Shown here: one piece after another, positions 34,031-34,505 of the stretch
Position numbering within the stretch: the first letter of the stretch is position 1
How the letters are laid out: each line of letters starts with the position of its first letter
Assembly (NCBI RefSeq): GCF_044222565.1
Contig: NZ_JBGANA010000033.1
Span: forward strand, 5,923 to 69,922
Length of the DNA stretch: 64,000 bases
Source: Prosthecobacter sp.
Lineage (GTDB): Bacteria; Verrucomicrobiota; Verrucomicrobiia; Verrucomicrobiales; Verrucomicrobiaceae
Direction of reading: 5' to 3'
Notes under the pieces: model-generated
Seen by the model: only the letters and a program-made list of their open reading frames with translations
What the model was told of the DNA's origin: nothing
The model's database searches: none
Translations under genes and position numbers: made by a program

Positions 34031-34505
34031 CTACTCCAGCTCTGCATTATCATTCACCGGCACGCTGACTGCCTTTCACCTGCTCCCAGGCCTTCAAACC
34101 GCCCTGCGCCTGCTGCACTCCATGCCAGGTCTCATGCGGCAGGTGCTCTTTCTGACCCGGAGCAAGGAGAATGTCGCTTTCCTGCGCATAATTCTACTTT
34201 GGTAACTCTTCAGGACGTTCATAAAAGTCATCAGGAGATTTCCACCCTCAGCCTCAGGCATCCGTGTCAATCCGTGTTATCCGTGGTCAAACATTCTGGA
34301 AGAATCAGGTCTGATCAGGCCCATATTAGGACTTACCAAAGTAGAAATAAGCTTCGGCGTTGAGTTCCTCAGATTTGGCGGAGTTGTAGTGCACTTTCAC
34401 GCCATCGAGCGAAAGACCCGATAGCGCCTCAACGCCGGCCTTGAGTTCGTCGGACAGACCGGTGTGCCTCGGCACATGAGTAATCGGGAGTTTTTCTGGC
34501 TGCAC
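34031..34505 (-). pseudogene. DUF4157 (eCIS core domain, HExxH) pseudogene split by a MITE, also frameshifted and carrying a premature stop
   Basis: Not in the ORF track. 5' half: PVQPEK...HTGLSDELKAGVEALSGLSLDGVKVHYNSAKSEELNAEA. After removing the insert it resumes in frame: YAQESDILLAPGQKEHLPHETWHGVQQAQG; shifted frame VPVNDNAELE*. Matches the remembered DUF4157 consensus TGLPD.LK.G.E.LSG.S...V.VHYNS..PAQL.A.AYAQG.DIH.APGQE.HLPHEAWHVVQQ. Confidence 0.85.
34192..34346. mobile_element. 155-bp MITE / internally deleted IS
   Basis: Perfect 14-bp terminal inverted repeats TTCTACTTTGGTAA (34192-34205) / TTACCAAAGTAGAA (34333-34346); ATAA direct repeats on both sides (34188-34191, 34347-34350); excision restores the GAA GCT TAT GCG CAG reading frame. 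Confidence 0.88.

Follow-up and report, generated by a model that had tools for sequence, protein, structure and literature searches.

A MITE with IS701-family ends interrupts an eCIS_core gene in Prosthecobacter

The interrupted gene and the element within it

The window, by which we mean the whole 64,000-nt stretch of DNA analysed here, spans positions 5923-69922 of contig C3 of a Prosthecobacter host genome (G000; 8.15 Mb, 44 contigs, 99.5% complete). Between infC and rpe it carries three co-oriented genes, which encode in order a 170-aa protein of a tape-measure family, an AAA ATPase and an eCIS_core (DUF4157) protein, the last of which is interrupted by a short element. The features of this locus, in window coordinates, are as follows.

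34050..34187, minus strand: 3' part of the eCIS_core gene (YAQESDILLAPGQKEHLPHETWH...), with a tail that is frameshifted relative to its orthologues
34188..34191, no strand: left ATAA of the target-site duplication (reads TTAT along the gene; the orthologue of the congener G014 has a single TTAT)
34192..34205, plus strand: TIR TTCTACTTTGGTAA, the counterpart of the parent's right (3') end, identical to the 14-mer ends of the L047 and L054 ISs
34192..34237, minus strand: 46 bp with homology to the final 46 bp of the parent IS (last transposase codons, 3' UTR and IRR), from which the GWKSPDDFYERPEELPK* reading stems
34238..34308, no strand: non-IS interior, a host repeat module with three ATCCGTG units (34260-34285) followed by GGTCAAACATTCTGGAAG
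34309..34346, minus strand: stretch of ~22-39 bp with homology to the parent's left (5') end; the 14-bp TIR at 34333-34346 forms part of it
34333-34346: right TIR TTACCAAAGTAGAA, the exact reverse complement of TTCTACTTTGGTAA
34347..34350, no strand: right copy of the target-site duplication, ATAA
34351..34505, minus strand: 5' part of the interrupted eCIS_core (DUF4157) gene
34326-34505, minus strand: actual ORF of the interrupted gene, which runs 7 codons into the MITE and then stops (59 aa)
34607..35428, minus strand: neighbouring AAA ATPase gene (273 aa; the G014 orthologue has 463 aa)
35441..35953, minus strand: neighbouring gene for the 170-aa protein (Pfam PF19268, 2.3e-57, profile 299-463 of 463)

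The element is a MITE of 155 bp (window 34192-34346), and its perfect 14-bp TIRs and 4-bp ATAA duplication, both proposed in a first-pass annotation of this DNA, can be read directly in the sequence. The inverted repeat is confined to these ends, as the outward positions (A against A) give no extension and the first inward position is a C against C mismatch. When the 64-kb window was scanned for the 14-mer TTCTACTTTGGTAA with up to two mismatches, the two MITE ends were the only sites found; the chance estimate for the TIR pair was 0.05 expected, and two matches were reached in none of 100 shuffles. The tandem ATCCGTG repeat named in the same annotation is also present, its three units starting at 34260, 34270 and 34279 (spacings of 10 and 9 bp), as is a minus-strand reading, GWKSPDDFYERPEELPK*. 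Some 70-85 bp of the MITE are IS-derived, and it carries no transposase.

Together, the MITE and one copy of the duplication measure 159 bp, or 53 codons, and joining the flanks yields a continuous 98-aa frame (...NAEA-YAQESD...) that matches positions 2-78 of the 79 in the Pfam eCIS_core profile PF13699 (formerly DUF4157), scoring 32.2 bits where 22 is the cut-off. No match to PF13699 was obtained with the interrupted 59-aa product, and the gene-orientation frame, to which this count is confined, contains five stops on its way through the window copy. The expectation that removing the element would restore the reading frame exactly was borne out through the domain but not in the tail (window 34050-34110, minus strand), where a 4-nt length difference relative to G014 and G021 shifts the frame and a stop that is premature in comparison with both falls within the conserved stretch VN[DE]D.GLE.EADVMG.

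The two neighbouring genes are altered as well. Relative to its G014 orthologue the AAA ATPase lacks ~190 N-terminal residues, and its Walker B motif reads FDKAD against FDEAD (Lys for Glu), while the 170-aa protein corresponds to no more than the C-terminal portion of PF19268, a contractile-injection-system tape-measure family. No other injection-system genes (sheath, tube or baseplate) were found near the three-gene locus. Judged by its sequence, this locus is a contractile-injection-system remnant that is decaying independently of the MITE, and we flag the DUF4157 gene and its two neighbours for annotation as a decaying remnant rather than a working module. The gene is indeed interrupted, but to speak of the insertion as knocking it out, as the first-pass annotation did, overstates the case: because the target gene and its neighbours carry other lesions, the MITE is one lesion among several, and the inactivating event cannot be pinned on it.

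Genomic copies, empty site and parent insertion sequence

A genome-wide check for further copies, suggested by the first-pass annotation along with checks for a full-length parent and for an empty site in relatives, returned six full MITE copies in the host genome, on six contigs, and one relic.

C3:40114-40268 (the window copy), flanks ATAA/ATAA
C33:108214-108368, flanks TTAA/TTAA
C9:26909-27063, flanks TTAG/TTAT
C11:234752-234906, flanks TTAA/TTAA
C25:13152-13306, flanks TTAG/TTAG
C42:34629-34780, flanks TTAA/TTAA
C25:~2588-2842, a decayed, longer MITE relic

All six full copies have NTAN flanks; the 4-bp direct duplication is perfect in five, and the flanks of the sixth match at three of four positions. 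The ATAA and TTAG pairs are non-palindromic and so show a direct duplication of 4 bp. The copies on C3, C33, C9 and C11 share a mutual identity of 96.8-98.7%, and those on C25 and C42 are 89.7% identical to each other and ~80% identical to the other four. The sequences point to two subfamilies, behind which there plausibly lie two waves of amplification. Most of the five copies outside the window appear intergenic when judged by stop-to-stop frames, which are uninformative in a GC-rich genome.

A separate motif, GCTCT(A/G)GACTACTTTGGC, has nine bases in common with the MITE TIR and different flanks, and occurs in the host genome at C4:560, C5:102217, C5:86988, C29:136642/136728, C36:94996 and C42:89313. 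Possibly it marks the terminus of some other repeat or IS family. The recurring motif GCTCTRGACTACTTTGGC contains nine TIR bases but is a different repeat.

Gene order is conserved in the congener G014 (infC, ATPase, DUF4157 gene, rpe, tadA), where nothing interrupts the DUF4157 gene. When the DNA of the two is aligned, the additional 159 bases of the window map precisely next to a lone TTAT, at which G014 has no insert, and this relative thus provides the empty site. The G021 homologue, the third compared, has CTAT at the site and no interruption there either.

In two relatives the match to the MITE was confined to its first 40-44 bases, and the one in G021 adjoins an ORF resembling a transposase N-terminus. 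Searching the genus with this G021 transposase fragment gave full-length frames, and the loci were then scanned for TIRs, which identified the following elements (positions within each locus).

L047 (Prosthecobacter sp. MAG), 1330-2867: IS of 1538 bp, flanks TTAA/TTAA, identical 14-bp TIRs at both ends
L054, 1330-2865: IS of 1536 bp, flanks TTAC/TTAC, identical 14-bp TIRs at both ends
L057 (G021:C72), 1062-1809: internally deleted derivative of 748 bp, flanks TTAC/CTAA, not a direct repeat
L051, 381-1882: distant relative of ~1.5 kb, flanks CTAG/CTAG, termini TTCTACATTGTTA(G/A)
L053, 381-1883: distant relative of ~1.5 kb, flanks TTAA/TTAA, termini TTCTACATTGTTA(G/A)

A full-length parent IS therefore exists, as elements of 1536-1538 bp in congeneric genomes, and is absent from the host. 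The transposase ORF of the L047 element (1405-2844) encodes 479 aa and scored 308.8 bits on NCBIfam NF033540 (IS701 family transposase, equivalog; cut-off 150) and 2.4e-48 on Pfam DDE_5 (PF13546); no match to an rve domain was found in the parent transposase. In BLAST alignments with the L047 IS, bases 1-22 of the MITE reverse complement are 91% identical to IS bases 1-22 (by eye the similarity continues to about base 39, with 30 of 39 positions identical), and bases 110-155 are 87% identical to IS bases 1493-1538. The latter segment is 93% identical to IS ends in G079, a genome that also holds a MITE-like copy. The closest full-length IS ends are thus 87-93%, not 100%, identical to those of the MITE. 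The parent transposase terminates in ...NQTPPNDFYE*, and as this stop codon is mutated in the MITE, the frame runs on there to ...DDFYERPEELPK*.

A further derivative lies at L042:~2650-3067 (G021:C198), where an N-terminal transposase fragment is fused to the 3' end. The L057 and L042 derivatives of the IS701 element, internally deleted or 5'-truncated, are intermediate between the full IS and the MITE.

In the host genome, the best NF033540 score was 26 bits, below the cut-off, PF13546 gave no match, and tblastn with the parent transposase gave a best E of 1.3. A search of the host genome for TIRs with up to two mismatches found none beyond the MITE copies and the relic, and none of the contig ends of the 44-contig assembly carried a TIR or transposase fragment. 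With no IS701 transposase in the host, the MITE copies are orphaned, and they appear to have outlived the parent IS in this genome; that an assembly gap conceals a parent copy is unlikely. G014, in which MITE copies occur too, had no match to the N-terminal transposase fragment. The host genome would be a documented case of MITEs outliving their parent IS.

The interior ATCCGTG module

By BLAST, the 70-87 bp in the interior of the MITE have no counterpart in the parent IS. They contain a module of the form ...TCAGGC ATCCGTG TCA ATCCGTG YN ATCCGTG GTCAAA..TC.GGA, which is also found outside the MITE, both alone in intergenic DNA of the host genome and in arrays situated between ordinary genes.

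C5:74050-75508: tandem array of ~15 units of ~100 bp, each with the hairpin ATCCGTGGTCAAAG...CTTTGAACCACGGAT
C22:161643-162083: tandem array of ~100-bp ATCCGTG module units
C28:127559-128785: longer-period array of the ATCCGTG module

The hairpin in the tandem units of the C5 and C22 arrays has a 14-bp stem. The C28 array lies in a long intergenic mosaic of short repeats (C28:127450-128900; runs of AAATCATAAATCAT, CATCCAG and CATTGTC), in which the module is interleaved with a period of ~490 bp.

The triple-heptamer pattern occurs in 56 of the 201 sampled genomes of the order, distributed over 20 of 46 genera, against ~0 for a control in which the pattern was read backwards. Some solo modules have flanks in common with decayed G014 MITEs, so that the interior may be either a captured host repeat or an old part of the MITE lineage. 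Searches of Rfam at a permissive threshold with the window MITE locus and two tandem-array loci returned no family, and a promoter and terminator scan gave no signal inside the MITE.

Family assignment and competing explanations

Members of the IS701 family measure 1400-1550 bp, have ends of the form ---YACT-Y--YR and duplicate exactly 4 bp of the target (De Palmenaer, Siguier and Mahillon 2008, PMC2266710). The first-pass annotation noted that the MITE ends do not start like the TG/GG/CA termini of common IS families, but TTCTACTTTGGTAA fits all seven specified positions of IS701 ends given there (T at 4, ACT at 5-7, T at 9, T at 12 and A at 13). The parent length of 1536-1538 bp lies within the family range, and the 4-bp duplication also fits. 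In size, duplication, ends and its NF033540 and DDE_5 transposase the parent element resembles the family described in PMC2266710, whereas the window element itself, which has no transposase, is not an IS. We also collected 42 distinct insertions of related ISs with the terminus TTCTACTTTG (at most one mismatch); a TA-centred NTAN borders each of them on both sides, and in 26 the 4-bp duplication is perfect (TTAA in 7, TTAG in 5, CTAA in 5, and single cases that include ATAA). Given this terminus and these targets, the MITE ends and the ATAA target are typical of the IS701 clade. Literature searches on IS701-derived MITEs and on Prosthecobacter IS elements found nothing specific, and none of the papers searched names this IS or its MITE.

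We conclude, with a probability of about 0.93, that an IS701-family IS of Prosthecobacter gave rise to this non-autonomous MITE, in which a host module takes the place of the transposase gene, and that mobilisation was probably in trans. The first-pass annotation had instead suggested that the element may come, by internal deletion, from an unusual subfamily of IS3/IS30/IS481, families with an rve/DDE integrase. The duplication length offers some room for this, as IS3 and IS481 can make 3-5-bp duplications, and the minus-strand peptide GWKSPDDFY bears a loose likeness to the motif G(W/Y)K(S/T)P..F at the C-terminus of rve transposases. However, this peptide corresponds to the last codons and 3' end of the IS701 transposase gene, the full-length elements with identical TIRs encode an IS701/DDE_5 transposase that lacks an rve domain, and the MITE ends start with TTCTAC, not TG...CA. 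An origin in those families is, in our assessment, close to excluded, and the parent transposase (NF033540, 308.8 bits; DDE_5) places the element in IS701 instead. Derivation from another family that targets TA or YTAR, namely IS630/Tc1-mariner (2-bp TA) or the IS5 group (4-bp YTAR), is also very improbable. These families likewise use AT-rich, TA-centred sites (NTAN, often TTAA or TTAG), every insertion site found here is of that kind, and the palindromic TTAA flanks, taken alone, would fit a 2-bp TA duplication. The non-palindromic ATAA/ATAA and TTAG/TTAG flanks, in contrast, repeat directly over 4 bp, which rules out the 2-bp TA duplication of IS630, and perfect 4-bp duplications at 26 of the 42 related insertions compare with ~12% expected, by our own estimate, if only the TA were duplicated. 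Transposase family and terminal sequences differ as well, as the parent enzyme is of the IS701 (DDE_5) type, not DDE_3 or IS5-type, and the MITE ends lack the GG/GA start of IS5 elements.

It is hardly more credible that no transposon inserted here, and that a host intergenic repeat (REP-like, with the ATCCGTG module) was placed by recombination or the structure is an assembly artefact. The interior is found in many contexts outside the MITE, and the genome is a draft in 44 contigs, but the TIRs are identical to the ends of full-length ISs, the MITE copies have 4-bp duplications (perfect in 5 of 6), and the orthologue preserves a precise empty site. In addition, the window copy lies ~32 kb from the nearer end of its 72.7-kb contig and differs by at least 3 bases from every other copy. 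A further possibility accepts the MITE as real and holds that it was co-opted, the ATCCGTG array being a protein-binding or regulatory cassette spread by the MITE and the window copy having a function beyond gene disruption. The module is nearly unchanged in both MITE subfamilies and in the G014 copies while the surrounding interior diverges, and the ATCCGTG motif, with its 9-10-bp period, recurs across the order far above its backwards control; against this, no binding protein, promoter or terminator signal or Rfam match was found for the MITE, and a regulatory role is unlikely for a copy inside a decaying gene at the end of an operon. We regard such co-option as improbable. Only a slim chance can be given to the broader proposal that the MITE lineage captured the module as three units on one helix face that form a binding array for a host DNA-binding protein, that the MITE seeds such sites at new loci, and that the free modules and ~100-bp arrays make up an undescribed functional repeat system of Verrucomicrobiales. 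The conservation of the ATCCGTG motif across the order is nevertheless the only lead of wider interest to come from this element.

For the IS701-derived MITE, the parts can be arranged in a sequence of events in which mobilisation is drawn from the elements of congeners. The MITE retains ~46 bp of the right end and ~22-39 bp of the left end of the parent, both 14-bp TIRs included, and a ~70-87-bp host repeat module occupies the space of the transposase gene. An IS701-family DDE transposase supplied in trans would bind the TIRs and excise or copy the element, which would then insert at a TA-centred NTAN target through a 4-bp staggered cut, whose repair would leave ATAA/ATAA. The window copy landed inside the eCIS_core domain and brought in-frame stops with it, which cut the product to 59 aa, with loss of the HExxH-containing half. 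Subsequent loss of the parent IS from the host would have stranded the six copies.

The MITE is real, well formed and ordinary. It resembles other bacterial MITEs, such as MaeMITEa-h of Microcystis aeruginosa (PMC2779907), in being shorter than 300 bp and noncoding, with TIRs, target-site duplications and several copies. Like bacterial MITEs in general, it has ends in common with an autonomous IS and belongs to a class of elements that can inactivate genes; it differs from them in its low copy number (six), in the absence of the parent from the same genome, and in an interior that is a host repeat module and not the product of a simple internal deletion. Correia elements and Nezha are further bacterial MITEs. 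Our result assigns a small Prosthecobacter repeat family to IS701, of which only the family assignment is new, and leaves the understanding of transposition unchanged.

The analysis also delineates a widely distributed IS701 clade, defined by the terminus TTCTACTTTG and a TA-centred 4-bp target. Among the lineages with transposases 38-67% identical to that of the parent are Gammaproteobacteria, Thermoanaerobaculia, Desulfobacterota, Bacteroidota and Verrucomicrobiota. In about one third of the insertions of this clade the two flanks disagree at their outer positions, perhaps because copies have recombined with one another. The clade insertions with the TTCTACTTTG terminus (L063-L142) span many bacterial phyla and include one copy in a MAG labelled Bathyarchaeota (L103); many copies are present in Thiohalocapsa PB-PSB1, in Ferruginibacter and in a Thermoanaerobaculaceae MAG.
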